Positions 4,801 through 63,952 of a DNA stretch of 64,000 nt are shown here, in pieces; positions within the stretch are counted from its first letter, which is position 1, and each line of letters begins with the position of its first letter. Below the pieces are notes generated by a model that saw nothing but the letters and a program-made list of their open reading frames with translations, was not told the DNA's origin and did no database searches. Location: contig CAYZAV010000002.1 of the NCBI GenBank assembly GCA_964475855.1, positions 51,933 through 115,932 of the forward strand, written 5' to 3'. Both the position numbers and the translations under genes were made by a program. The stretch is from an uncultured Candidatus Saccharibacteria bacterium. Its GTDB lineage: Bacteria > Patescibacteriota > Minisyncoccia > Minisyncoccales > Staskawiczbacteraceae.

Positions 4801-6879
4801 ATGTCCAATAGAAGCCATCCACTAGAAAAATTGCGTAACTTTGGTATTATCGCCCACATTGATGCGGGCAAGACAACGGTTTCCGAACGGTTGCTTTTTT
4901 ATACCGGAGTTTCCCATAAAATCGGGGAAGTACACGAAGGAGATACCGTCATGGACTGGATGCCCCAGGAACGTGAACGCGGTATTACTATTACCGCCGC
5001 CGCTATTACTATGCAATGGAAGGGCATTCAAATGAACCTGATTGATACCCCTGGCCACATTGATTTTACGGCCGAAGTGCAGCGTTCTCTGCGCGTATTG
5101 GACGGCGCTGTGGTGGTGTTTGACGGAGTTGCCGGTGTTGAGCCGCAATCTGAAACCGTATGGCGCCAAGCTGACAAATACGGCACGCCGCGCATGTGTT
5201 TTATTAATAAATTAGACAGGATGGGGGGAAATTTTGAAAAGTCTTTCCAATCCATTTTAACCAAACTAACCAAAAACGCCGTGGCCATGAATTTGCCTAT
5301 CGGCGAAGAAGAACATCTTTCGGCTATTATTGATTTGCTGAAAATGAAGGCCATTTATTTTGAAGGGGAAAAAGGTGAGATTGTGGTTGAAAAAGAAATT
5401 CCGGCCGATATGTTGGAAAAGGCAAAACTGTGGCGTGAAAAAATGGTTGATAGGATTGCCGGTGAAGATGATGCGTTGACCAATAAATTACTGGAAGGCA
5501 AGGAAATTACGAACGAAGAACTGATGGCCACCATGCGCAAAGCCTGTTTGGCATTTAAATTGGTGCCCGTTTTTTGCGGCAGCGCCTTGAAAAACAAGGG
5601 AACCCAGTTGGTGTTGGACGGTGTGGTGGATTATTTGCCAAGCCCGATGGACATCGGCCAGGTAAAAGGGACTGATCCAAAAACTGGCGCAGAAATTGAA
5701 CGCAAATTCAGTGATGATGAGCCATTTGCCGCCTTGGTATTTAAAGTTGCTACCGACCCGTTTGTGGGACAGTTAACTTTTTTCCGTGTGTACTCGGGAG
5801 TATTAAACAAAGGAACCTATTTGTTAAATTCGGTAACCGGTGAACAAGAGCGCATCAGCCGTATTTTGCGTATGAAGTCCAATAGTCGTGAAGAACTGGA
5901 TGTCATTTACGCCGGGGAAATCGGCGCCACGGTTGGTCTTAAAAATACTGTCACCGGTCATACGTTGTGCGATATGGCAAAGCCCGTGATTTTAGAAAAA
6001 ATCTCTTTCCCTGAACCCGTTATCGCTATGCGCGTGGAACCAAAAACCAAAGCTGACCAGGAAAAGCTGATCATGTCTATCAGAAAGCTAACCCAAGAAG
6101 ATCCGACATTCCGCATCAAAGAAGATATTGAAACAGGCGAAACTATTATTTCTGGTATGGGTGAATTGCACTTGGATATTATTGCTGATAGGCTACGCCG
6201 CGAGTTTAATGTTGATGCAAACTTTGGAAAACCGCAGGTTGCTTATCGTGAAACTATCACTATGGAAGCCGAAGCCGAAGAAAAATATGTCCGCCAGTCT
6301 GGTGGAAAAGGACAGTACGGCCACGTGTGGCTTCGCGTCAAACCAAAGGAACGCGGGGCAGGGTTTGAATTTATTGATGAAATTAAGGGGGGTTCGGTGC
6401 CAAAAGAATTTATCAAGCCGACAGAAAAAGGGGTTATTGAAGCTATGGACAAAGGAGTGGTGGCCGGATACCCATTGGTTGATATTGAAGTTACCTTGTT
6501 TGACGGAAGTTATCACGACGTGGATTCTTCTGAATTTGCCTTTAAAATTGCCGGCTCTATGGCGTTGCAACACGCCGCCAAAGCAGCCAAGCCCGTTATT
6601 TTGGAACCGATCATGAAAACCGAAGTCATTACGCCCGACGGATTCTTCGGCACAGTTATTTCTGATTTATCCAGCCGCCGCGGCAAGATTGAAGAAACCA
6701 AAGAGCGCATGGAAATGAAGGTGATTGACGCTTCTGTTCCATTGAGCGAAATGTTCGGGTACGCAACTGCGCTTCGCAGTTTAACCGAAGGCCGCGCATC
6801 TTTTACGATGCAATTTGATAGATATGAACCGGTGCCGAACAATGTAGCCCAGCAGATTATAGAAGGGAAGGTAAAATAA
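4801..6879 (+). CDS. fusA: Elongation factor G
   Basis: AHIDAGKTT, DTPGH, NKLD GTPase motifs; 692 aa. Confidence 0.98.
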   Translation: MSNRSHPLEKLRNFGIIAHIDAGKTTVSERLLFYTGVSHKIGEVHEGDTVMDWMPQERERGITITAAAITMQWKGIQMNLIDTPGHIDFTAEVQRSLRVLDGAVVVFDGVAGVEPQSETVWRQADKYGTPRMCFINKLDRMGGNFEKSFQSILTKLTKNAVAMNLPIGEEEHLSAIIDLLKMKAIYFEGEKGEIVVEKEIPADMLEKAKLWREKMVDRIAGEDDALTNKLLEGKEITNEELMATMRKACLAFKLVPVFCGSALKNKGTQLVLDGVVDYLPSPMDIGQVKGTDPKTGAEIERKFSDDEPFAALVFKVATDPFVGQLTFFRVYSGVLNKGTYLLNSVTGEQERISRILRMKSNSREELDVIYAGEIGATVGLKNTVTGHTLCDMAKPVILEKISFPEPVIAMRVEPKTKADQEKLIMSIRKLTQEDPTFRIKEDIETGETIISGMGELHLDIIADRLRREFNVDANFGKPQVAYRETITMEAEAEEKYVRQSGGKGQYGHVWLRVKPKERGAGFEFIDEIKGGSVPKEFIKPTEKGVIEAMDKGVVAGYPLVDIEVTLFDGSYHDVDSSEFAFKIAGSMALQHAAKAAKPVILEPIMKTEVITPDGFFGTVISDLSSRRGKIEETKERMEMKVIDASVPLSEMFGYATALRSLTEGRASFTMQFDRYEPVPNNVAQQIIEGKVK

Positions 6880-6883
6880 CTTC

Positions 6884-7060
6884 GCGCCAGCATCCGGGTA
6901 TGAATAGACGCGGTTAATTCCGCCAGCGCGGACCGGCAAAAAAAAGACTCTATCAAGAGTCTTTTTTTTGCCTATTACCGCTCACCTCTCGGCAATTTTC
7001 CCGCTTCGCGGGACCGTGCAAAATTGCCTCCGAGATGCATTCATACCCGGATGCTGTCGC
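6884..7060. repeat. 177-bp structured palindromic (MITE-like) element, copy 1
   Basis: Same length as 39341..39517, with 8 differences by my alignment. 22-nt terminal inverted repeats and an internal 17-bp A8/T8-flanked hairpin. Confidence 0.75.
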
Positions 7061-7070
7061 TATGCACCTC

Positions 7071-7094
7071 AATACGCATGTCCACGTGCGTATT
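7071..7094. repeat. ACGCA/TGCGT hairpin (family member) directly 3' of element copy 1
   Basis: aatacgcatg-tcca-cgtgcgtatt. Same position as the 39524..39547 hairpin, with a compensatory t/a vs c/g change. Confidence 0.55.
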
Positions 7095-7104
7095 AAAAAT
7101 GGTA

Positions 7105-7162: not shown

Positions 7163-7558
7163 CTAGATTTCATCTCTCTGGAGAGCCAATCCTAGCCGTC
7201 GAAGTTTTTCTCGCACTTCATTAAGAGAGGTCATTCCGAAGTTACGAGAGCGATCGAGGAGGTCGTCAGCTGACAACTTAATCAGGTCGCCAAGGATAGC
7301 TTCACCCTGTGGACTGCCGGTAATGGCTCGTCTGCATCCTTTGCGTGCGCGCACCGATAGGTTTAGATCGCTGATTGACATTGCCAAGACCTTTTCTTGG
7401 GTTCTTTCTACTACGGTCGGAACCTCTTCAATTGTCATGGTGAACACGATCCGTTCGCCCGGATTCAGGATGCCATCCCGCTGAACCCAGTTCATCAGCA
7501 TGGTGCGGATCGATTCTTTCTTTTCATTGATGATTCGTACACGATCCTGTTGTTGCAT
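7163..7558 (-). CDS. Orphan RNA polymerase alpha C-terminal-domain-like (HhH) protein
   Basis: C-terminal half ISDLNLSVRARKGC...LGDLIKLSADDLLDRSRNFGMTSLNEVREKLRRLGLAL matches the alphaCTD pattern (LSVRaaNcL...dLl..rNfGkkSl.Ei...L...GLsL). GAGGT SD motif. G+C-rich. Confidence 0.7.
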   Translation of the reverse strand: MQQQDRVRIINEKKESIRTMLMNWVQRDGILNPGERIVFTMTIEEVPTVVERTQEKVLAMSISDLNLSVRARKGCRRAITGSPQGEAILGDLIKLSADDLLDRSRNFGMTSLNEVREKLRRLGLALQRDEI

Positions 7559-7661: not shown

Positions 7662-7784
7662 GGGCGTTGTTGCCCAAGTGCACACGCGCAGGCGCGCGTT
7701 GTCGCGCCGAGCGCAAGGCAGATTTTCAATGCATACGAATATTAGGCATTGAAAAGACTGCCGGGCACTTGGGCAGCAACGCCC
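7662..7784. repeat. G+C-rich 123-bp inverted-repeat element with three internal hairpins
   Basis: gggcgttgttgcccaagtgc (7662-7681) pairs with gcacttgggcagcaacgccc (7765-7784), 1 mismatch. Inner hairpins acgcgc/gcgcgt, gcgc/gcgc and ggcagattttcaatgc/gcattgaaaagactgcc. Confidence 0.6.
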
Positions 7785-7836
7785 GAACGCAAATAGGCTT
7801 GCGTGTTTAAACTAAAAAATATGATACAATAATCCC

Positions 7837-8169
7837 ATGGCAGAATATATTTTCATTATTATTTTAGCTGCAATATTGGTGGTACTGGTAGCTATTTTGT
7901 TTACCCTTTGGATTATGAAGGCAAAAATGGTTGTCGCGCCAACGGGGGGATCACCGCATCTTGATGTCCGAAGGCACACCAAACAGCACAATTTAGAACT
8001 GATTTTGGCCTTGTTTGCCAAATATCCAACGCTTACCAATATGATCATCCGTGAAGAACTGGGCTTTGACGACCGGGTGATTGTAAACTATATGGATGAG
8101 CTGGAAGCTATGGGTAAAGTACGACAAATAGGGGATACGGGCAAATACGTGCACTATGAATTGAGGTAG
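7837..8169 (+). CDS. Hypothetical membrane-anchored winged-helix-like protein
   Basis: N-terminal TM IFIIILAAILVVLVAILFTLWI. The C-terminal ~60 aa has a wHTH-like pattern (ELGFDDRVIVNYMDELEAMGKV). Confidence 0.5.
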   Translation: MAEYIFIIILAAILVVLVAILFTLWIMKAKMVVAPTGGSPHLDVRRHTKQHNLELILALFAKYPTLTNMIIREELGFDDRVIVNYMDELEAMGKVRQIGDTGKYVHYELR

Positions 8170-8184
8170 TTTAACACGCATGCC

Positions 8185-8208
8185 AACACGCACACGGGTG
8201 TGCGTGTT
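8185..8208. repeat. ACGCA/TGCGT hairpin family member
   Basis: aacacgcaca-cggg-tgtgcgtgtt. No T-run follows on the plus strand. Confidence 0.55.
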
Positions 8209-8232
8209 AAAAATGAAGCAAATTTGTCAAAT

Positions 8233-8260
8233 TTGACACGCTTGCTTGGATGGTTACAAT
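8233..8260 (+). promoter_or_regulatory. Promoter within a TTGTCAAATTTGACA palindrome; predicts a leaderless mRNA
   Basis: TTGACA(8233-8238)-16-TACAAT(8255-8260), then 6 nt to ATG 8267. Confidence 0.5.
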
Positions 8261-8266
8261 GGATAT

Positions 8267-8443
8267 ATGAACGTTACTAAATGCGATTTGTGCAAAAAAG
8301 AAATTAAGGAAAGCAGATATGCGGTTACCGTTCGCTTTGATTGGAAAGGTTATGAGTTTTGCAAGAACTGTCGCGTGCCCTTCGTAAAACTATTAGAGAA
8401 ACATAAACTTATTAAAAAAGAAGACAAAAAGCATGAAGAGTAA
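8267..8443 (+). CDS. Small zinc-ribbon protein (CxxC...CxxC)
   Basis: MNVTKCDLCKKE...EFCKNCRVPF. Start set at ATG 8267; the track start at 8246 is TTG. Confidence 0.5.
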   Translation: MNVTKCDLCKKEIKESRYAVTVRFDWKGYEFCKNCRVPFVKLLEKHKLIKKEDKKHEE

Positions 8444-8772: not shown

Positions 8773-9966
8773 ATGGCAGACAAATTTGAGCGAACAAAGC
8801 CTCACGTAAACATTGGTACTATTGGTCACGTGGACCATGGCAAGACCACTACTTCGGCTGCAATCATGCACATCTCAAAGTTGCGTGGTTTGCATTCGTC
8901 CGGGGAAGGGGTTGACCAGATTGACAAGTCACCGGAAGAAAAAGCACGCGGAGTGACAATTTCTATTACCCACTTGGAATGTGAAACGCCAAAGAGGCAC
9001 TATGCTTTGATTGACTGCCCGGGCCACGCTGACTACATTAAGAACATGATTACGGGAGCCGCTCAGATGGATGGTGGTATTTTGGTGGTATCTGCTCCAG
9101 ACGGACCGATGCCTCAGACTAAAGAACACATTTTGCTGGCCAAGCAAGTTGGATTGCCATCCTTGCTGGTGTGGATGAACAAATGTGATATGGTAGATGA
9201 TCCTGAAATTTTGGATTTGGTTGAATCTGAAGTTCGTGAATTATTGAAAAAATATGGATTCCCAGGAGATGAAACCCCGATTATCCGTGGTTCTGCCGTG
9301 AAAGCCCTGGCCGCAACTTCTGTTGATGATGCCGCAGCTAAGCCGATTATTGAATTGCTTGATGCTTGTGATAATTATATTCCTGAACCGGTGCGTGAAT
9401 TAGACAAACCGTTTGCTATGGCTATTGAAGACGTGTTCAGCATTGAAGGCCGCGGAACCGTGGCTACTGGCAGGATTGAACGCGGAATTATCAGGCAAAA
9501 CGACGAAATTGAAGTGGTGGGAATCCGACCAACCCAAAAGTCTGTGGTGGTTTCCGTTGAAATGTTCCAAAAATCTTTGGACGAAGGACGTGCCGGAGAA
9601 AACGTTGGAATTTTATTGCGCGGATTGAAAAAAGAAGACATCGAACGCGGACAGGTGCTGTGCAAACCGGGTTCTATTAATCCTCACACCGAATTTGAAG
9701 CCGAAGTGTATGTGCTTGGCAAAGACGAAGGAGGCCGCCATACCCCATTTTTCACCGGATACAAACCGCAATTATATATCCGCACCTCTGATATTACCGG
9801 AGATGTAACATTGCCTGCCGGAACCGAAATGGTTATGCCGGGCGACACTGCCAATTTAACTGTTAAATTAATTGTTCCGGTTGCTTTGGAAGAAAAAGGA
9901 AAATTTGCCATCCGCGAAGGAGGCAAGACCGTGGGAGCAGGAGTGGTAACAAAGATCATTAAATAA
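8773..9966 (+). CDS. tuf: Elongation factor Tu
   Basis: [18 protein letters not shown]; 397 aa. Confidence 0.98.
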
Positions 9967-15136: not shown

Positions 15137-15328
15137 ATGAAAACCGCAGAATTACGGAAAAAAAATACCAAAGAATTGGAAAAATCGGTGGTGGATCTCA
15201 AAAAAAAGTTGAGCGACATCCGGTTTAAGTTTTCCAGCAATCAGATGAAGAACGTGAAAGAATTGAGCAATATCAAAAAAGAAATTGCCCGCAGTTTGAC
15301 TATTATCAACGAATTTACGAATAAATAA
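15137..15328 (+). CDS. rpmC: 50S ribosomal protein L29
   Basis: 63 aa, position between rplP and rpsQ, ELRKKNTKELEK pattern. Confidence 0.9.
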   Translation: MKTAELRKKNTKELEKSVVDLKKKLSDIRFKFSSNQMKNVKELSNIKKEIARSLTIINEFTNK

Positions 15329-15397
15329 CGAATTTGCGAATTAAAGTGTAATTAACGAGTGTATTAGCAAATTCGTAACACATTCGTAAATTCGCTG
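15309..15397. repeat. Word-built inverted repeat (ttcgtaaa/cgaattt words) spanning the rpmC 3' end and spacer
   Basis: acgaatttacgaat...acgaatttgcgaat pairs with gcaaattcgt...attcgtaaattcg. Related to 42563..42660. Confidence 0.6.
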
Positions 15398-15407
15398 ATT
15401 AACTAAC

Positions 15408-24273: not shown

Positions 24274-24957
24274 TTAAGGCTCAAAGATTTCCTCTCCGAA
24301 TTCTTCGCTGGTCTTGCTGACTAGTTGCTCGACACGTTGACGGCTGACACCTATTGCCTCGCCAATTTCTCGCAGGGTTTTACCCTTTTTGACCATCTTG
24401 ATGATGGTTTGCATCCGCCCACTTTCAAGATCTCTCCAAGTGGCAGACGTTCTTGAATCGAGCAGGTTTTCTTTGATAAGCTCGTGGGCATATAGGTCTA
24501 CTTTTCTTACTGAGACGCCAAGTAATGCTGCAATCTTGCCATTGGCAAGGCCTAGGTTCCGTAATAGTACCACGCGCTTTTTATAGCTTTGTCGTTGTTC
24601 TTTCGTAAAATGCTGCCTATGTGGCACAAGCCTTTTCTCTCTAATAAGCTGGGAGGCAATAACGATTACGATGCCAGAGGTAAGACCAAGCTTTTTGGCA
24701 ATGGCTTTATTGTCTAGGCCTTTGTTTCGTAGTCTGATAATCCCTTCTTCGCGCCGGATGTGTTCCTGTTCAGAAACAGTGAAGTTCCCCTTTTTCTGTT
24801 TTTTGACTTTTCCTTTCTTGATAAGCTGGTGGACCGTGTTTATTACTACGCAATACGGAAGCCCTGTTTTCTCTACAACCTCATTGTTACTGAAGCCTTG
24901 ACTGCGCAGTGCAATGATTTGCGATTCGCGGCGTTGCCGTTCTTGGTCGGATAGCAT
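24274..24957 (-). CDS. Protein built of four tandem ~57-aa sigma70-region-4/LuxR-like HTH modules
   Basis: Four internal repeats of the form R..II.LR..G.sn..IA..LG.s...V......LI..g. AAGGAG SD motif. G+C-rich. Confidence 0.65.
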   Translation of the reverse strand: MLSDQERQRRESQIIALRSQGFSNNEVVEKTGLPYCVVINTVHQLIKKGKVKKQKKGNFTVSEQEHIRREEGIIRLRNKGLDNKAIAKKLGLTSGIVIVIASQLIREKRLVPHRQHFTKEQRQSYKKRVVLLRNLGLANGKIAALLGVSVRKVDLYAHELIKENLLDSRTSATWRDLESGRMQTIIKMVKKGKTLREIGEAIGVSRQRVEQLVSKTSEEFGEEIFEP

Positions 24958-25089: not shown

Positions 25090-26802
25090 ATGAAATCCGC
25101 AGAACTTCGCCAAAAATTCCTGGATTTTTTTGAGAAAAAGGGGCATACAATTGTCTCTAGCGCTTCTTTAATTCCTGCAGAAACGGGAGCTGGGCAAAAG
25201 ACATTATTTATTACGGCGGGAATGCAGCCTTTGATACCGTTTTTATTAGGGGAAACGCATCCCGGGGGCAAGAGAATTGTTAATATTCAAAAATGCTTCA
25301 GGACCATTGATATTGATGAAGTCGGCGATGATACACATAACACTTTTTTCCAAATGTTGGGAAATTGGTCGCTGGGGGACTATTGGAAAAAAGAATCTAT
25401 TTCCTGGAGTTTTGAATTTTTAACGAAAGAATTGAATATTCCAATAGAAAAATTGGCAGTTTCTTGTTTTATTGGTGATGAACATGCGCCAAAAGATAAA
25501 GAGTCCGCTGAAATCTGGGAAAGCTTGGGAGTTACGAAAGAAAGAATCGCTTTTTTGCCAAAAGAGGATAACTGGTGGGGTCCGGTTGGAGAAACCGGTC
25601 CGTGCGGCCCCGACACAGAGATTTTTTATTGGAAAGCAAATGATGTGCCCGTGCCAAAAGAATTTGATTCGACTAATAAAAATTGGGTTGAGATTTGGAA
25701 TAATGTTTTCATGCAATATGTTAAGGATACCAATGGCAACTATGTTTTGGCAGAACAAAAAAATGTAGATACGGGTATGGGCTTTGAAAGGACGCTGGCT
25801 ATTTTGAATGGTTTTGAAAATATATACGAAACAGATTTGTTTGCGCCGGTTATGCATTTATTCCCAGGTCATGTTGATGAACGTAAAAAACGGATTATCG
25901 CCGACCACGCCAGGGCATCGGTATTTTTAATTTCAGATGGGGTGATTCCTTCAAATAAAGACCAAGGATATATATTGCGAAGATTGTTAAGAAGAATGAT
26001 GGTACATATGCGAGGCATTGAGCACGATATCTTTGAGCCGATTAAGAAAAATATAGAAATATACCAAGAAATATATGCTTTAGATGAGGGTAAAATTATA
26101 CCGGTAGTTAAAGAAGAGGCCGAGAAATTTGAAAAAACATTGGCGGCAGGATTAAAAGTGATTGAAAAAATAACCACTATTACCGGCAAAGAAGCTTTTT
26201 TACTCTATGAAACATATGGTTTTCCATTGGAAGTTTTAGAAGAAATACGCGAAGTTGTAAATCGAGAAGATTTTTTTGAAGAGTTAAAAAAACACCAAGA
26301 ATTATCTCGCACTGCTTCTGTGGGAATGTTTAAAGGGGGACTGGCGGATCATGATCCAAAAACTATAACATTGCACACAGCGCACCATTTGCTGTTGGCG
26401 GCTTTGCAGCAACTGTTAGGGTCAGAAGTAAAGCAAAAAGGCAGTAATATTACGCAAGAACGGTTACGGATTGATGTTTCGCTTGGGCGGAAAATTACCA
26501 AAGAAGAATTATTGGAGGTGGAAAATTTGGTTAATGAAAAAATTTCTGGCGCTCTGGATGTGGTAAAAAAAGAAATGTCGCTTTCGGAGGCACAGCAAAT
26601 TGGTGCAGAAATGGAATTTGGTGTAAAATACGGTAATACGGTGTCAGTTTACTTTATAGAAGAAAAAGATGGCACGTCGTTTAGTAAAGAATTTTGCGGC
26701 GGCCCGCATGTAAAAAATACATCGGAAATAGGTAAGTTTAAGATAATAAAAGAAGAAGCTTCTTCGCAGGGGGTGAGGAGGATAAAAGCAATCTTAGAGT
26801 AA
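25090..26802 (+). CDS. alaS: Alanyl-tRNA synthetase, compact form (570 aa, no C-Ala domain)
   Basis: MKSAELRQKFLDFFEKKGH start. Editing motifs HTAHHLL and CGGPHV. Start set at ATG 25090 with TTGCGG-17-TAGTAT-7 nt upstream. Confidence 0.9.
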   Translation: MKSAELRQKFLDFFEKKGHTIVSSASLIPAETGAGQKTLFITAGMQPLIPFLLGETHPGGKRIVNIQKCFRTIDIDEVGDDTHNTFFQMLGNWSLGDYWKKESISWSFEFLTKELNIPIEKLAVSCFIGDEHAPKDKESAEIWESLGVTKERIAFLPKEDNWWGPVGETGPCGPDTEIFYWKANDVPVPKEFDSTNKNWVEIWNNVFMQYVKDTNGNYVLAEQKNVDTGMGFERTLAILNGFENIYETDLFAPVMHLFPGHVDERKKRIIADHARASVFLISDGVIPSNKDQGYILRRLLRRMMVHMRGIEHDIFEPIKKNIEIYQEIYALDEGKIIPVVKEEAEKFEKTLAAGLKVIEKITTITGKEAFLLYETYGFPLEVLEEIREVVNREDFFEELKKHQELSRTASVGMFKGGLADHDPKTITLHTAHHLLLAALQQLLGSEVKQKGSNITQERLRIDVSLGRKITKEELLEVENLVNEKISGALDVVKKEMSLSEAQQIGAEMEFGVKYGNTVSVYFIEEKDGTSFSKEFCGGPHVKNTSEIGKFKIIKEEASSQGVRRIKAILE

Positions 26803-26897
26803 ATTATTCTAATTATACTAATTGCTCTAATTATTCTAACTATTTGGGTATTGGCATTTGATTAGGTCAATTAGAATAATTAGGTTAATTAGAAATT
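26802..26897. repeat. Word-built inverted repeat (ttctaatt words)
   Basis: aattattctaattatactaattgctctaattattctaac pairs with attaggtcaattagaataattaggttaattagaaatt. Confidence 0.6.
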
Positions 26898-39288: not shown

Positions 39289-39299
39289 AATAAACTAAG

Positions 39300-39321
39300 C
39301 CACCTCTCTGGGTGGTTTTTT
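39300..39321 (+). terminator. Intrinsic terminator after mreB
   Basis: CCACC-tctctg-GGTGG followed by tttttt. Confidence 0.6.
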
Positions 39322-39340: not shown

Positions 39341-39517
39341 GCGACAGCATTCGGGTATGAATAGACGCGGTTAATTCCGCCAGCGCGGACCGGTAAAAAA
39401 AAGACTCTGCGAAGAGTCTTTTTTTTACCTATTACCGCTCACCTCTCGGCAATTTTCCCGCTTCGCGGGACCGTGCAAAATTGCCTCCGAGATGCATTCA
39501 TACCCGAATGCTGTCGC
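39341..39517. repeat. 177-bp structured palindromic (MITE-like) element, copy 2
   Basis: Perfect 22-nt terminal inverted repeats gcgacagcattcgggtatgaat / attcatacccgaatgctgtcgc. Same orientation as copy 1. Confidence 0.75.
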
Positions 39518-39523
39518 TACACG

Positions 39524-39547
39524 AACACGCAAGCACATCTGCGTGTT
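39524..39547. repeat. ACGCA/TGCGT hairpin directly 3' of element copy 2
   Basis: aacacgca-agcacatc-tgcgtgtt. Confidence 0.55.
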
Positions 39548-39604
39548 GGTATTTCTATTATTTTTGCAAAAAAATACCCACGGCGCGATGGGCGTGAGCT
39601 TTTG

Positions 39605-39817
39605 TTAGTGAGTCGCTGTGATTTCAATGAGTTCCAAGTTGAACCGGGTGGAGCATTTTTGTTCTTCTCGGGCTTTTTTGAAATCTTGCCATTGGTTGAA
39701 GGCATCGGTCTCTGTGTCGGCATGGAAAATCCTATCTTGGACAGACGCAAGCCTGCCATCGGCCCATCTCTGGACTTCTTTGTATATGACACGCCAGCAT
39801 TTTTGAAAACCCATCAT
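39605..39817 (-). CDS. Small hypothetical protein (70 aa, cassette)
   Basis: MMGFQKCWRV... GAAAGG lies 8 nt before the ATG; has its own promoter. G+C-richer than the flanks. Confidence 0.45.
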   Translation of the reverse strand: MMGFQKCWRVIYKEVQRWADGRLASVQDRIFHADTETDAFNQWQDFKKAREEQKCSTRFNLELIEITATH

Positions 39818-39869
39818 ACTAGTTGCCTTTCTTGATAAAGAGCATTGCCCTAAGTAAGTAGGTAATCCT

Positions 39870-39898
39870 ATATTACATCTTTTAAAAGTATTTGTCAA
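39870..39898 (-). promoter_or_regulatory. Promoter of the 70-aa cassette gene
   Basis: Minus strand TTGACA(39898-39893)-17-TAATAT(39875-39870). Confidence 0.5.
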
Positions 39899-39936: not shown

Positions 39937-40719
39937 ATGAACCAGTTGGAATTTTTGAAGAAAATGTGGGATGGTGGGCAATTGGCTCATGCTTATATTT
40001 TTTCGGGGGCTGACATGGTGGGGTTGAAAAAAGCGGCCAATGAATTGCTCGGACATGCCGGCTGTAAATTTCCGGATGTGATTACACTTTCCAGTGCGCA
40101 AAGCGACAGTTCCATTAAAAATGAAAAGGATATGATGGAAATCGATATTGATCAGATTCGTCGTGTCCAGCAATTTTTATCATATAAATCATATAACGGG
40201 GGACTGAAAGCCGTGGTGGTTGAACATGCAGAACGGATGAACGTCGAAGCCCAAAACTGTTTTTTGAAAAATTTGGAAGAACCAAAGGGCCAGACATTGA
40301 TCATGTTATTATGCGACAAGCCTGAATATTTATTGCCCACCATTGCCTCACGCTGTCAGACAATCCGGTTTTCCGCAAAAAGCGAAGCGCAAGAAGCAGT
40401 ATTGCCCCAAGTTTTGCAAAATGTAATTAATGGGGACTTGGCTGAAAAATTCAAGTTTGCCAAAACAGCCAACCTGGAGGGAGAAAATTTCGAGAATATG
40501 TTAGCGGGTCTACAGCGACATTTTCGGAATTTACTTCTGGATAAAATCCAGGGAGAGACTAATCTACCTGCCTCGCCGGCAGGCGGGCGAATTACATCCG
40601 AATATACGAATGAAAAGATGGTATCGGTACTGCGGCAGATTGAAACATTGCAGCACCAGGCGGCAACCACCAATCTTAATAACAAACTGGCATTGGAAAT
40701 ATTATTACTTGAGTTATAA
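39937..40719 (+). CDS. holB: DNA polymerase III delta' subunit
   Basis: LAHAYIFSG..., NCFLKNLEEP, LPTIASRCQ motifs. Start at MNQLEFL. Confidence 0.8.
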   Translation: MNQLEFLKKMWDGGQLAHAYIFSGADMVGLKKAANELLGHAGCKFPDVITLSSAQSDSSIKNEKDMMEIDIDQIRRVQQFLSYKSYNGGLKAVVVEHAERMNVEAQNCFLKNLEEPKGQTLIMLLCDKPEYLLPTIASRCQTIRFSAKSEAQEAVLPQVLQNVINGDLAEKFKFAKTANLEGENFENMLAGLQRHFRNLLLDKIQGETNLPASPAGGRITSEYTNEKMVSVLRQIETLQHQAATTNLNNKLALEILLLEL

Positions 40720-40791
40720 AGTTCATAAAGTTATAAAGTTCATAAAGATACGAAGAACTTTAAAAACTTTACGAACTTTCAAACTTTATAA
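40715..40791. repeat. Word-built inverted repeat (aaagtt 9-mers)
   Basis: ttataaagttcataaagttataaagttcataaag pairs with actttaaaaactttacgaactttcaaactttataa. Paired aaagtt cores are separated by 3-nt mismatches. Confidence 0.6.
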
Positions 40792-40800
40792 TTAAAATTT

Positions 40801-41359: not shown

Positions 41360-41429
41360 AAAATTTACAATATACAATACACAATATACAAACAAATTTT
41401 GTAAATTGTAGATTGTGTATTGTATATTT
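41360..41429. repeat. Word-built inverted repeat (tacaata heptamers)
   Basis: tacaatacacaat (41372-41384) pairs perfectly with attgtgtattgta (41412-41424). Confidence 0.6.
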
Positions 41430-41433
41430 AGTA

Positions 41434-42561
41434 ATGATAATTACTTTGTTGATTGCATTTTTAAGTCTTATTGCCCTCATGATCATCCATGAATTCGGGC
41501 ATTTTATCATTGCTAAAAAATTCGGGGTGAAGGTGGAGGAATTCGGCATTGGATATCCGCCGCGGCTTTTTGGCAAGCAATTTGGCGATACGCTGTATTC
41601 CATAAATTTGGTGCCACTTGGCGCGTTTGTGAAAATTTATGGAGAAGAGGGCGAGGTAGTTTCTGACGTTGATAATTACCGTAGTTTTTCGGGACTTGCC
41701 ATTTACAAGCGTATGTTGATTGTCCTTGGCGGGGTGATTGCGTTTTGGATTGCCAGCATTATTATTTTTTCAGTAATGTTTTTGACCGGCGCCACAATGC
41801 CTGTTGGTGACCAGGATGTGGCCGGATTCACCGATATCACCATCACTATTTCTGAAGTGGCGGAAAATTCCCCAGCTCACGATTCGGGACTCAAAGAGGG
41901 TGATAAGATAGTCAGTGTCCAAGTTGGCCAAGTACGCACGGATATCAAAAAAGTGGCAGATTTTCAGAAAATCGTGCAAGAGAATAAAAGTAAACAAATA
42001 ATCGTAGCCGTTGTGCGTCAAGGGGAAGAACTTTATATTCCATTAATCCCGCGAGTTGAATATCCCGAAGGTCAGGGGCCGACAGGGGTGGTGTTGGAGC
42101 GTCTTGACACTATTATCCAAAAAGCCCCCTGGTATGAAGCTCCGTTCCGTGGAGCCGCGTATTGCTGGAAGGTGACCGTTGATATCACCTATGGCATATT
42201 TTCTTTTTTTGCCAATATCTTCCGGGGACAGGGTGTTCCTTCGGGCGCTGAATTCGCCGGGCCGGTGGGGATTACCATTTTCCTGGCACGCGCAGCAAGT
42301 TACGGAGCAGGATTTTTCCTTTACTTTATCGGGTCTATTTCTGTGCTTTTGGCTATCTTTAATTTACTGCCCATCCCGGCGCTAGACGGGGGGAAGTTAC
42401 TATTTTTAATCATTGAAAAGGTGAAGGGGTCGGCCGTTTCAGTAAAAATAGAGGGTTGGCTGACTATTTTCTTTTTTATTCTATTGATTTCCATGTCGCT
42501 ATTTATTACCATAAAATTTGATTTCCCGCGAGTAATGGAATTTTGGAAAGCAGGGTTGTAA
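41434..42561 (+). CDS. rseP: RIP metalloprotease RseP (M50 with PDZ domain)
   Basis: HEFGHF zinc motif, PDZ-like AENSPAHDSGLKEGDKIVSV, LPIPALDGG. Confidence 0.88.
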   Translation: MIITLLIAFLSLIALMIIHEFGHFIIAKKFGVKVEEFGIGYPPRLFGKQFGDTLYSINLVPLGAFVKIYGEEGEVVSDVDNYRSFSGLAIYKRMLIVLGGVIAFWIASIIIFSVMFLTGATMPVGDQDVAGFTDITITISEVAENSPAHDSGLKEGDKIVSVQVGQVRTDIKKVADFQKIVQENKSKQIIVAVVRQGEELYIPLIPRVEYPEGQGPTGVVLERLDTIIQKAPWYEAPFRGAAYCWKVTVDITYGIFSFFANIFRGQGVPSGAEFAGPVGITIFLARAASYGAGFFLYFIGSISVLLAIFNLLPIPALDGGKLLFLIIEKVKGSAVSVKIEGWLTIFFFILLISMSLFITIKFDFPRVMEFWKAGL

Positions 42562-42562
42562 T

Positions 42563-42660
42563 CAGCGAATTTGCTAATATATTACGAATTTACGAATGTG
42601 GCGAACGAGCGATCACGTAAAGTGTATTCGTAAATTCGTAACTAATTCGTAAATTCGTTG
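42563..42660. repeat. Word-built inverted repeat (ttcgtaaa words), related to 15309..15397
   Basis: cagcgaatttgctaatatattacgaatttacgaatg pairs with tattcgtaaattcgtaactaattcgtaaattcgttg. Confidence 0.6.
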
Positions 42661-42668
42661 ATGATACT

Positions 42669-44990: not shown

Positions 44991-45019
44991 ATAACCACGC
45001 ACAAACTGTGCGTGGTTAT
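44991..45019. repeat. ACGCA/TGCGT hairpin family member
   Basis: ataaccacgcaca-aac-tgtgcgtggttat (13-bp stem). Confidence 0.6.
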
Positions 45020-45071: not shown

Positions 45072-45356
45072 ATGATTTCAAAAGAAGACGTACAGCATAT
45101 TGCCAAGTTGGCGCGATTGGAACTGGGTCAGCAAGAAGCGATAAAAATGCAGCAGGATATGTCGGCGATTTTAGATTATTTTGATTTGTTGAAAAAAGCG
45201 CCAAAAGTTACAAAGGTTACAAAAGTGACAAAGGTAAAAAATAATGGATTGCGCGACGATAAGGTGGGGCAACAAAATAGTGCTTTGGCGGGAGAACTAA
45301 TCAATGCCGCGCCGGATAAAAAGGATGGATATGTCAAAGTTAAGGCAATACTATAA
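45072..45356 (+). CDS. gatC: Glu/Asp-tRNA amidotransferase subunit C (contains a KVTKVTKVTKV repeat)
   Basis: 94 aa, VQHIAKLARLEL...ILDYFD..., precedes gatA. Confidence 0.88.
   Translation: MISKEDVQHIAKLARLELGQQEAIKMQQDMSAILDYFDLLKKAPKVTKVTKVTKVKNNGLRDDKVGQQNSALAGELINAAPDKKDGYVKVKAIL
45207..45233 (+). repeat. Three tandem in-frame 9-bp units (same family) inside gatC
   Basis: gttacaaag gttacaaaa gtgacaaag, translated (K)VTKVTKVTK. Confidence 0.8.
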
Positions 45357-47466: not shown

Positions 47467-47574
47467 TTACCTTAGAAATCCAACGCCCACCGAAAATGCC
47501 ACCATGCTGATTGCCACTAGGCTGATGAGGGCTACCCAAACGCCTTTAAGTATCTTTTTTTGGTTAAATTTCAT
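47467..47574 (-). CDS. Possible 35-aa small membrane protein
   Basis: My translation: MKFNQKKILKGVWVALISLVAISMVAFSVGVGFLR. Its ATG abuts the dispersed element exactly as at rpmB and rplQ. Confidence 0.3.
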   Translation of the reverse strand: MKFNQKKILKGVWVALISLVAISMVAFSVGVGFLR

Positions 47575-47745
47575 GAATTTATGAACGAAGTGAATAAATT
47601 CACCTCGGAAATCAGGCTTAATTATATCGTATACCTTGCGGCCTGATTTCCGCTGGATACCTTATTCGGAAATCAGGCTTAATTATATCGTATACCTTGC
47701 GGCCTGATTTACGCGGGATACCTTATTTTCTCGCAGGATACCTTT
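47575..47745 (-). repeat. Dispersed leader-proximal element, copy 3, with a tandem 61-bp duplication
   Basis: Units 47606-47666 and 47667-47727 differ at 2 positions. A partial third ggatacctttatt box follows. Confidence 0.75.
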
Positions 47746-51673: not shown

Positions 51674-51752
51674 GTGACAAAAGTAGCAAAGGAAGCAGAA
51701 GATACAAAGGCCTTTGAGCCATCTGTATCCTTTGTTACGTTTGAAACTTTTT
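51674..51752. repeat. Hairpin built from GTKRCAAAG-type 9-mers
   Basis: gtgacaaaa gtagcaaag gaagcagaa gatacaaag pairs with cctttgagccatctgtatcctttgttacgtttgaaac. Confidence 0.55.
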
Positions 51753-62440: not shown

Positions 62441-63952
62441 ATGGCAAAGCCCAAGAAAAAAAAGAAACTAGTGCTTGCACGAAAAAAACCGGTAAAAAAA
62501 CCGAAAAAAGTTTTAGTAAAGAAAAAACCGATTACCAAGAGAATAAAAGCCAAGACCTTCCGCGGAGTTTCGCGTAAAATTCAGATTGATTCCGCGCCGG
62601 TAGCAGCCTTTCCGGCGGAGGCATTTTTCAAGGCGAAAATAAAAGTAATTGGCATTGGCGGGGGAGGTGGGTCTATTGTTTCCGAAATTGGCAGGTCTTT
62701 GAACAAGGCCACATTTGTGGTGGCGGATACTGATGAACGCGCGTTTAAAAAACGCCAGGGCATCAAACAGTTTTTATTCGGCCAGGAATTGACACATGGT
62801 TTGGGTACCGGATTAAACACCGACTTGGCACAGCGGGCCGCTGAAAGTGAAAAAGAAAATATCGCTAAATTATTTGACGGCCAGGATATTGTTATTTTTA
62901 TCGCCTGTTTGGGCGGAGGATTAGGAAGTGGTGCCACCCAAATATTCGCCGAGGCGGCCAAAGATTTCGGGGGAATTACCTTTGGTATTTTTACGCTGCC
63001 ATTTAAATTTGAAGGCAAAAACAAGCAAAAAATCGCAGCCAAGGCGTTGCGGGAACTACGTAAATCACTTAATGTTTCCATTACTATTCCCAACGAGCGT
63101 ATTTTTAAAATCATCCAGGAAAACACGGCCATTACTGATGCGTTCAGTACGGTTAACCGCAGCCTGATAGAATCGTTGGAAAGTTTGATAGATTTGATTT
63201 ACAATCCCGGTGTCATTAATATTGACTTCGCCGATCTGCGCGCTATTTTAAAGGGACGGGGGAATTTGGCGTTTTTAAATACGGCCGAGGCTTCCGGGGC
63301 TAATAGGGCGGATACCATCATTCATGAAATTTTGCATAACCCCCTATACCAAAGTAATAATTTTTCCGCCGAAAAAGTGCTATTTAACATTGCGAGCGGG
63401 GGAAATTTAAGCATGTTTGAGGTGGATAAAATAAGCCGGGTCATTTCTGAACATAACCAGTCCGCCAAGATTATTTTCGGGATTTCCAAAGACAATTCTC
63501 TGAAAAATAAAATCAAGACGACGCTGCTCATGACGGGGGCACCGCTTGGGGTGGAGCCCGATGCTACAAAGGTTACAAAGGTTGCAAAGGTGGCAGAGGT
63601 CGCAAAGGCTCCGGAAGCTACAAAGGTGACAAAGGCTACAAAAGTGGCAAAGACCACAAAGGTGGCAAAGGTGGTCTCGCCTTCGCCTAAGGCTTCGGCG
63701 AAACAAAGAAAGAAAAAAGTGGTGCCGGCGTCAAAAACCCCACCGCTTCAAAATGTTCCCGTTTTTTCCAATGTGTACGAGCCGGCCGAAAATTCGCGTA
63801 AATTGAGCATTGTTGAGCCACCACAGAAAAAAGCCATCAGGCGCACAGCATTGGAAGTGAAAAAAGCCGAAGAAATACAAGAACAAAGGCAATCCGATCA
63901 GGAAAAAGAGTGGGAAATTCCAGCATTTTTAAGAAAAATAAAGATCAAATAA
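62441..63952 (+). CDS. ftsZ: Cell division protein FtsZ with a ~60-aa Lys-rich N-terminal extension and a repeat-built C-terminal linker
   Basis: GIGGGGGS, ACLGGGLGSGA tubulin-signature region. C-terminal peptide EWEIPAFLRK. Confidence 0.9.
   Translation: MAKPKKKKKLVLARKKPVKKPKKVLVKKKPITKRIKAKTFRGVSRKIQIDSAPVAAFPAEAFFKAKIKVIGIGGGGGSIVSEIGRSLNKATFVVADTDERAFKKRQGIKQFLFGQELTHGLGTGLNTDLAQRAAESEKENIAKLFDGQDIVIFIACLGGGLGSGATQIFAEAAKDFGGITFGIFTLPFKFEGKNKQKIAAKALRELRKSLNVSITIPNERIFKIIQENTAITDAFSTVNRSLIESLESLIDLIYNPGVINIDFADLRAILKGRGNLAFLNTAEASGANRADTIIHEILHNPLYQSNNFSAEKVLFNIASGGNLSMFEVDKISRVISEHNQSAKIIFGISKDNSLKNKIKTTLLMTGAPLGVEPDATKVTKVAKVAEVAKAPEATKVTKATKVAKTTKVAKVVSPSPKASAKQRKKKVVPASKTPPLQNVPVFSNVYEPAENSRKLSIVEPPQKKAIRRTALEVKKAEEIQEQRQSDQEKEWEIPAFLRKIKIK
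63563..63670 (+). repeat. Twelve tandem in-frame 9-bp units (GTKRCAAAG family) inside ftsZ
   Basis: gctacaaag gttacaaag gttgcaaag gtggcagag gtcgcaaag gctccggaa gctacaaag gtgacaaag gctacaaaa gtggcaaag accacaaag gtggcaaag. Confidence 0.85.

Follow-up and report, generated by a model that had tools for sequence, protein, structure and literature searches.

A structure-constrained, MITE-like palindromic repeat with a nested terminator-like hairpin in Candidatus Staskawiczbacteria

ERIC (IRU) and Correia (CREE, NEMIS) elements are intergenic repeats of 100–170 bp, built as imperfect palindromes with terminal inverted repeats (TIRs) whose sequences are conserved across species; they duplicate a TA target, are often co-transcribed and can affect transcript fate. 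In the Bacillus cereus group, bcr1 is a dispersed intergenic repeat of about 155 bp, the distribution of which is not conserved between related strains, while its predicted cruciform-like fold is kept by compensatory base-pair changes (PMC3184786). REPINs are hairpin-forming units mobilised by RAYT, which show frequent compensatory changes on both sides of their stems and no target-site duplication, and for which the structure of single-stranded DNA or of mRNA has been proposed as the selected form (PMC3116915). The pneumococcal interspersed repeat SPRITE has a fold resembling an intrinsic terminator (PMC3184786). A literature search found no description of small repeats in Patescibacteria/CPR bacteria. 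The family described below is best read as a lineage-restricted addition to these structure-constrained MITE-like repeats.

In the window (the whole stretch of 64,000 nt that was analysed), an element of 177 nt is present twice on the plus strand: copy 1 at 6884–7060, beginning 4 nt past the stop codon of fusA (6877–6879), and copy 2 at 39341–39517, 52 nt past the stop codon of mreB, with covariance-model (CM R1) scores of 131.9 and 133.7 bits, respectively. An earlier sequence-only reading of this DNA had claimed two copies of equal length and strand, the differences of which are concentrated in compensatory pairs and a loop, and the comparison bore this out. The copies are 96% identical and differ at eight element positions (4, 11, 54, 69–71, 87 and 167), where 11/167 and 54/87 are compensatory pairs changing C-G to T-A, the first in the 22-bp terminal stem and the second at the base of an A8/T8 hairpin, 69–71 are three bases of a 4-nt hairpin loop, and position 4 is the sole mismatch, within the 22-nt TIR of copy 1. 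The terminal stem, P1, pairs a left arm at 6884–6905 with a right arm at 7039–7060 (22 bp, one C/T mismatch), the arms being 95% complementary in copy 1 and 100% in copy 2. It encloses the hairpin P2a (TCCGC-CAGC-GCGGA) at 6919–6932; a 17-bp hairpin, GGC-A8-GACTCT/AGAGTC-T8-GCC, at 6935–6972, which forms on either strand and whose counterpart in copy 2, at 39392–39429, has T-A in place of C-G and the loop GCGA instead of ATCA; and the P3 module at 6987–7035, repeated with the same sequence at 39444–39492. P3 runs in copy 1 from CTCGGCAATTT through the apical hairpin CCCGC/GCGGG and the bulge ACCGTGC to AAAATTGCC and TCCGAGA, and of the hairpins in the earlier reading, both the A8/T8 one and the nested GGCAATTTT/AAAATTGCC one were found.

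The fold is more stable than those of shuffled sequences (z = -11.6 on the plus strand and -12.1 on the minus strand), reaching -108 kcal/mol when the flanks are included. In a simulation of 200,000 runs, each placing eight random substitutions on the fold of copy 2, the probability of breaking at most one pair was 0.013, and that of obtaining at least two compensatory double changes was 0.0008; a chance origin of the pattern of differences is unlikely (P about 0.001–0.01).

By exact matches of its proteins, the window was assigned to a contig of 404 kb in the ENA metagenome assembly ERZ27247820. The best relatives of the EF-G and MreB proteins encoded here belong to Candidatus Staskawiczbacteria (Patescibacteria/CPR), and searching related genomes for copies, as had been suggested, recovered three diverged members. 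A weak match among the EF-G homologue loci was found in L008 (EF-G 90% identical), directly past fusA, and an nhmmer profile then gave two more in the genome L092/L093 (GCA_001820095.1), one in the rplC-rplD spacer, inside the S10 operon, and the other after rpsH. The family amounts to five members in three genomes, three of them beyond the window and in two other genomes, with two copies in about 80 kb here, two in about 38 kb of L092 and one in L008. A covariance model made from the five members, which scores those same members at 105–136 bits, found no further one in about 0.85 Mb of Patescibacteria loci, and none was present in the loci of five other Staskawiczbacteria genomes (L091, L094/L095, L096, L097 and L105); with filters off, the model gave in five relatives just generic palindromes of 10–23 bits on both strands, the conserved core appearing in none. 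Nor was a third copy seen on the source contig extended by about 16 kb.

Wider collections were equally silent. A gapped TIR-core pattern had no match in 185,579 species genomes, and a 20-nt TIR pattern met in JGI metagenomes two isolated chance matches of 20–25 nt in unrelated high-GC or coding DNA; plasmids and phages (blastn), viral contigs (conserved-core pattern) and 5.8 billion proteins, searched with the element translated in six frames as a pseudo-protein so as to catch spurious ORFs covering its other copies, gave none. Thus the public collections searched (genomes, metagenomes, plasmids, phages and viruses) yielded neither a full-length parent element nor another copy, and the genome and metagenome contigs no autonomous insertion sequence with the same ends. 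As for known RNAs, a comparison with Rfam, which had also been proposed, offered no family that explains the element: in the window four tRNAs alone reach the gathering score of Rfam 15, the best matches over either copy at E up to 10 have 13–22 bits against thresholds of 37–100, and the L008 and L092 members match nothing.

One architecture is common to all five members: a long stem closes the structure, one hairpin carries a YAGC loop, and another, which is bipartite, carries an ACCRUGC bulge. The closing stem, P1, has a species-specific sequence. P2a keeps the YAGC loop and the C-G pair that closes it in all five, with stems that are exchanged between members (TCCGC, AAATTGC, TCCCGAC and CATTTTTC). 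P3, the most conserved module of the family, follows the consensus CTCGGC-RR-TTT, a variable apical hairpin, the conserved bulge ACCRUGC and AAAYYGCC, the core pattern of the family being CTCGGCRRTTT-N(12-42)-ACCRTGCNAAAYYGCCT. Between species, the termini vary and the internal core is conserved, which is the reverse of a classical TIR-MITE. Every member is oriented as its upstream gene and starts at the stop codon of that gene or within about 50 nt of it.

Two observations concern the borders of such elements in the relatives. In L008, at 8071–8335, an insert of about 190 nt past the fusA stop precedes a repeated version of the last 23 fusA codons (MEFNKYEVVPNNVAAQIIESRGK and stop), so that an insertion has duplicated the 3' end of fusA just upstream of the L008 element. 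Furthermore, a TAGGG(GG)CG(C)TT motif begins three different palindromic elements (L092 10063–10075, L092 17288–17300 and L097 about 8946–8960), its TAG being the stop codon of the upstream gene (rplC, rpsH); insertion-free relatives end rplC with TAA.

Within the five-member alignment, standard pairs occupy 92% of the cells of the paired columns, compared with 72% after column shuffles and 36–46% (about 40%) in controls with slid partners, and both sides have changed in 29 of the 51 pairs, statistics to be read as those of five sequences from three genomes, and few independent lineages, with a structure partly derived from the same sequences. RNAalifold finds P1, P2a and P3 independently, with 31 of 45 pairs covarying, and the internal helices P2a, P3 and P3a all take part, while the internal loops are the most conserved positions and the TIR sequence differs from one species to another. 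In the comparison of L092a with L092b, loops, junctions and flanks are 100% identical, and yet the P2a and apical P3 stems have been swapped en bloc and three P1 pairs have been compensated too. Taken together, the alignment supports a pairing constraint on the stems of the element. The sequence-only reading had gone further, arguing from covariation for a selected fold rather than a MITE. The first half of this argument stands, as a pairing constraint on the stems, given the non-random differences between copies, the architecture kept across species and the RNAalifold result; the opposition to a MITE does not, since the element is multi-copy, sporadic among close species and absent at orthologous sites of the nearest relative, and since the MITE-like bcr1 and REPINs show equal compensatory behaviour.

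The G.U and A.C cells give a mixed signal as to the strand on which the fold matters. Non-Watson-Crick cells of the plus strand are mostly A.C, equivalent to G.U on the minus strand, with four of them in P1 of L008, a member whose minus strand also folds better (z = -8.0 versus -4.5); one L092b cell favours the plus strand, opposite to L008. The plus strand is, by GC skew, the leading strand, and as the members are all co-oriented with the upstream gene, the polarity of transcription and that of replication are inseparable.

The distribution of the element is sporadic among close species. In the nearest relative species, represented by L088 and L100–L103, both sites are without it: homology between L088 (EF-G 95% identical) and the window ends at 6882, two bases short of the start of copy 1 at 6884, and in L100–L103 (MreB 99% identical, from the same JGI sample) the mreB-holB spacer lacks the element, keeps the flanking hairpin and can be aligned on either side of the point of insertion. 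Moreover, the contigs of two independent Logan assemblies end 42 nt into copy 2, as expected for a repeat. Several copies and presence/absence polymorphism at orthologous sites, by which MITEs are recognised, are both found. The fusA-tuf spacer is itself a hotspot, measuring 187 nt, 980 nt, 1.9 kb or 3.1 kb depending on the species. Absence at the orthologous mreB and fusA sites, multiple copies and the Logan breaks indicate that the element behaves as inserted, mobile-type DNA. No target-site duplication was seen at the five sites, which include additional copies of the kind that the earlier reading had advised examining, or in the comparison with the empty site of L100, the boundaries being uncertain by a few nucleotides. 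A TA duplication suggested by L092a (TA|GGGCGC...GCGC|TA) was not reproduced at the other four sites and was discarded. The earlier statement that the window holds no transposase agrees with the Pfam domains in precomputed gene tables and in a scan, which covered most of the window (all outside the ribosomal-protein operon at about 14.4–19.6 kb) and about 16 kb of flanks and showed no transposase, integrase or recombinase domain.

Each window copy lies 7–11 nt upstream of an ACGCA/TGCGT hairpin, AATACGCA...TGCGTATT at 7071–7094 and AACACGCA...TGCGTGTT at 39524–39547. That these hairpins exist had been correctly noted; their covariation, which had been counted with that of the element, is not part of it, the hairpin being native to its site. 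Considered as a component of the element, the hairpin was rejected because it occurs element-free at 7784, 8185 and 44994 and at the empty L100 site: it is one of a distinct family of short palindromes, and the one beside copy 2 has its orthologue in the native terminator hairpin of mreB in L100. The window contains five ACGCA-N-TGCGT hairpins where 0.6 would be expected, three of the five without the element. This AAYACGCA-loop-TGCGTRTT family stands at gene ends (7071–7094, 7784–7807, 8185–8208, 39524–39547 and 44994–45016) and is also found in relatives (L100 4241–4305 and L091 13373–13396), where the L100 hairpin with its T-run constitutes the mreB terminator. The placement of both copies beside such a hairpin may reflect a target preference.

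On the far side of these hairpins, each copy faces a minus-strand ORF which had been called a G+C-rich cassette gene, a description that holds weakly: 7163–7558 has 49.5% GC and 39605–39898 has 41.8%, the window as a whole having 42.7%. The two ORFs are unrelated to each other, and the source assembly has no gene call for the second. The first encodes a stand-alone protein of 131 aa matching the C-terminal domain of the RNA polymerase alpha subunit (PF03118, E = 5e-11). As rpoA encodes here 259 aa and no C-terminal domain, whereas RpoA of the relative L104 has 308 aa including that domain, 7163–7558 may represent a split alpha subunit, with the gene for the C-terminal domain on the opposite strand between fusA and tuf. 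The second ORF, of 97 aa and without a Pfam match, has a promoter-like site at 39898–39870 and a terminator-like hairpin at 39593–39576, and the block of about 340 nt which carries it, 39548–39890, is missing from the nearest relative.

The A8-GACTCT-loop-AGAGTC-T8 module (38 nt) was found, within the material searched, solely inside the two window copies, and its lack in the L008 and L092 members makes it an insertion relative to the members of other species. On either strand it presents a hairpin followed by a U-tract, the anatomy of an intrinsic terminator, the extended stem having a dG of about -30 kcal/mol, the core with three A-U pairs one of -9.5, and the terminator stem proper being short (6 bp, three of them G-C). 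It was missed by a generic terminator scanner because the A:T pairs were counted as stem and no T tail was left. The module is a putative bidirectional, Rho-independent terminator, whose activity we infer from this anatomy. In copy 1 it lies 56 nt past the fusA stop and is the only terminator-like signal of the plus strand before the terminator of the convergent gene (7137–7112), so that it probably terminates fusA; most likely, copy 1 would end the fusA transcript and insulate it from the convergent gene. Copy 2 lies between a plus-strand terminator-like hairpin belonging to mreB (39297–39318) and the minus-strand one at 39593–39576, and its module is probably redundant at that site and little transcribed. 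This position between convergent hairpins argues against a purely RNA-level explanation of the element and makes an RNA-level function of copy 2 doubtful; co-transcription is predicted from position for copy 1 and L092a, and not for copy 2.

Compared with the systems described at the outset, the element shares with bcr1 a similar size, intergenic dispersal and a fold kept by compensation. The two are, however, unrelated in sequence and live in hosts of different phyla, bcr1 has 5-bp direct repeats at its ends where none is seen in this element, and bcr1 is known to be transcribed. With REPINs it has in common a long hairpin-forming unit, compensatory changes and the lack of a target-site duplication; nevertheless, a REPIN consists of two inverted REPs of 20–40 bp with a conserved REP sequence, while this element keeps an internal branched core and its terminal stems differ from species to species, the GTAG/CGTC tag is absent from its termini and no RAYT was seen in the regions scanned. 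ERIC and Correia elements are likewise intergenic imperfect palindromes with TIRs and of comparable size, but this element has neither TA duplication nor cross-species conservation of the TIRs, and no sequence similarity to them. Finally, unlike the fold of SPRITE, the terminator-like hairpin is here one module, of 38 nt, within a larger three-way structure, and it is confined to the subfamily of one species. Each individual property thus has a precedent in bcr1, REPINs and SPRITE taken together, and what sets the family apart is its host phylum, a branched core that keeps its loops, together with species-specific termini, the missing target duplication and the terminator module nested in one subfamily.

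Several explanations were weighed against this background. We hold it moderately probable that the element is a non-coding palindromic repeat of the insertion type, MITE-like in a broad sense, of a few Candidatus Staskawiczbacteria species, whose fold is kept by compensation and whose subfamily in the window has acquired a terminator-like hairpin. An alternative which is possible, and on the whole unlikely, is a functional structured RNA, acting in cis within a 3'-UTR or between cistrons or else encoded by a small RNA gene, the copies having arisen by duplication or selection and not by transposition, and the fold serving, for example, mRNA stabilisation, processing or protein binding through the YAGC loop and the ACCRUGC bulge. 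Conserved loops and a bulge among fully covarying stems are the classical signature of such RNAs, and the orientation shared by all five members with the upstream gene, their start near its stop codon, the necessary co-transcription of the rplC-rplD member in the S10 operon, and a core that is alignable between species when the surrounding spacers are not, all fit. Nevertheless, little transcription is expected for copy 2 between its convergent hairpins, the closest relatives lack the element at the same sites, Rfam families match no member, the A.C cells of the plus strand, above all in L008, contradict selection on a plus-strand RNA, and a promoter of its own is not evident at either copy. 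Less likely again is a structure-specific mobile element of CPR bacteria with a single-stranded DNA or RNA intermediate, in which a putative enzyme would read the YAGC(G) loop and the ACCRUGC bulge, or else a protein-binding non-coding RNA motif; structure-specific mobility would explain the missing target duplication and the strand-specific insertion by hairpins just after stop codons, as well as the species-specific closing stems and the en-bloc swaps of stems amid flanks that are 100% identical.

The remaining two explanations seem to us very improbable. The element could be a DNA-level site for recombination, attachment or protein binding, tied to the gain of the small, lineage-specific minus-strand genes beside both copies and marking the boundary of a cassette and not a transposon. 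Both copies share the succession of element, short hairpin, minus-strand terminator, small minus-strand ORF and promoter-like site, the nearest relative is without both ORF blocks, and the ribosomal-protein operon spacers of other Staskawiczbacteria also pair palindromes with small minus-strand ORFs; at mreB, however, the element and the ORF block are on opposite sides of the native hairpin, which makes them separate insertions, no minus-strand gene lies next to the L092 members, the two ORFs are not related to one another, and a recombinase domain is absent from the Pfam-checked parts of the window. With just as little expectation we consider a classical TIR-MITE derived from an insertion sequence with a DDE transposase, the internal structure of which would be incidental and the covariation a product of TIR symmetry and palindrome-templated repair. 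The near-perfect 22-bp TIR and the small, non-coding, multi-copy nature of the element are those of such a MITE, and compensatory change in the TIR is expected if one transposase binds both ends; moreover, template switching at quasi-palindromes can restore the symmetry of a hairpin without selection, and could have done so here. Yet there is no target-site duplication, the collections searched hold no insertion sequence with these ends, and P2a, P3 and P3a also covary and the internal loops are most conserved, with a TIR sequence that changes from species to species. Two further candidates were dropped: an integron attC-like site, for which the hairpin is too short, without the R/L box pattern and not in an array, and a retron, bridge-RNA or omega-RNA, as no reverse transcriptase, recombinase or TnpB is adjacent and no Rfam family matches.

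According to the favoured reading, that of an insertion-type repeat, the branched fold (long closing stem, YAGC-loop hairpin, and bipartite hairpin with the ACCRUGC bulge) is held by compensatory change, probably because the folded single strand, of DNA or RNA, is recognised by the machinery that mobilises or maintains the element. The subfamily of the window has gained the 38-nt A8-stem-T8 hairpin, terminator-like in both directions, with copy 1 most likely terminating and insulating fusA and copy 2 remaining redundant.

Streamlined as they are, Staskawiczbacteria genomes have ribosomal-protein operon spacers with many long palindromes, and those of L094, L096 and L097 are full of near-perfect hairpins of 70–190 nt from other families. 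In the window, a G+C-rich long hairpin at 7662–7784 (20-nt arms, 95% complementary and 83 nt apart), whose sequence is unrelated to the 177-nt element, sits within the fusA-tuf spacer, with the alpha-CTD-like gene on one side and a 110-aa ORF on the other. Other long intergenic palindromes are at 15305–15399, 42561–42662, 26802–26894, 40709–40796 and 41369–41428, two of which form a second repeat family with arms of CGAATTTACGAAT-like units. In addition, a 97-nt direct-repeat family (2683–2779, 47572–47668 and 47633–47729; 84% identity), one pair of which overlaps in tandem, carries a AAATTAGGC...GCCTAATTT inverted repeat, and runs of a 9-nt CAAAGGTNA-like unit occur at 45193–45244, 51678–51711 and 63558–63672, the last within the ftsZ ORF (62441–63952). 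A 227-aa protein encoded at 24274–24957 on the minus strand has about four tandem helix-turn-helix units (HTH_23, HTH_28 and Sigma70_r4-like) and no catalytic domain.

Small repeats being apparently undescribed for Patescibacteria/CPR, the family provides a concrete and alignable example, with clear covariation, insertion polymorphism and, in one subfamily, a built-in two-way terminator. The element also breaks short-read assemblies of these genomes. Moreover, repeats of this kind can remodel the way in which operons of core genes end, those of fusA and mreB in this case, and the family offers a handle for finding the enzyme that moves them.
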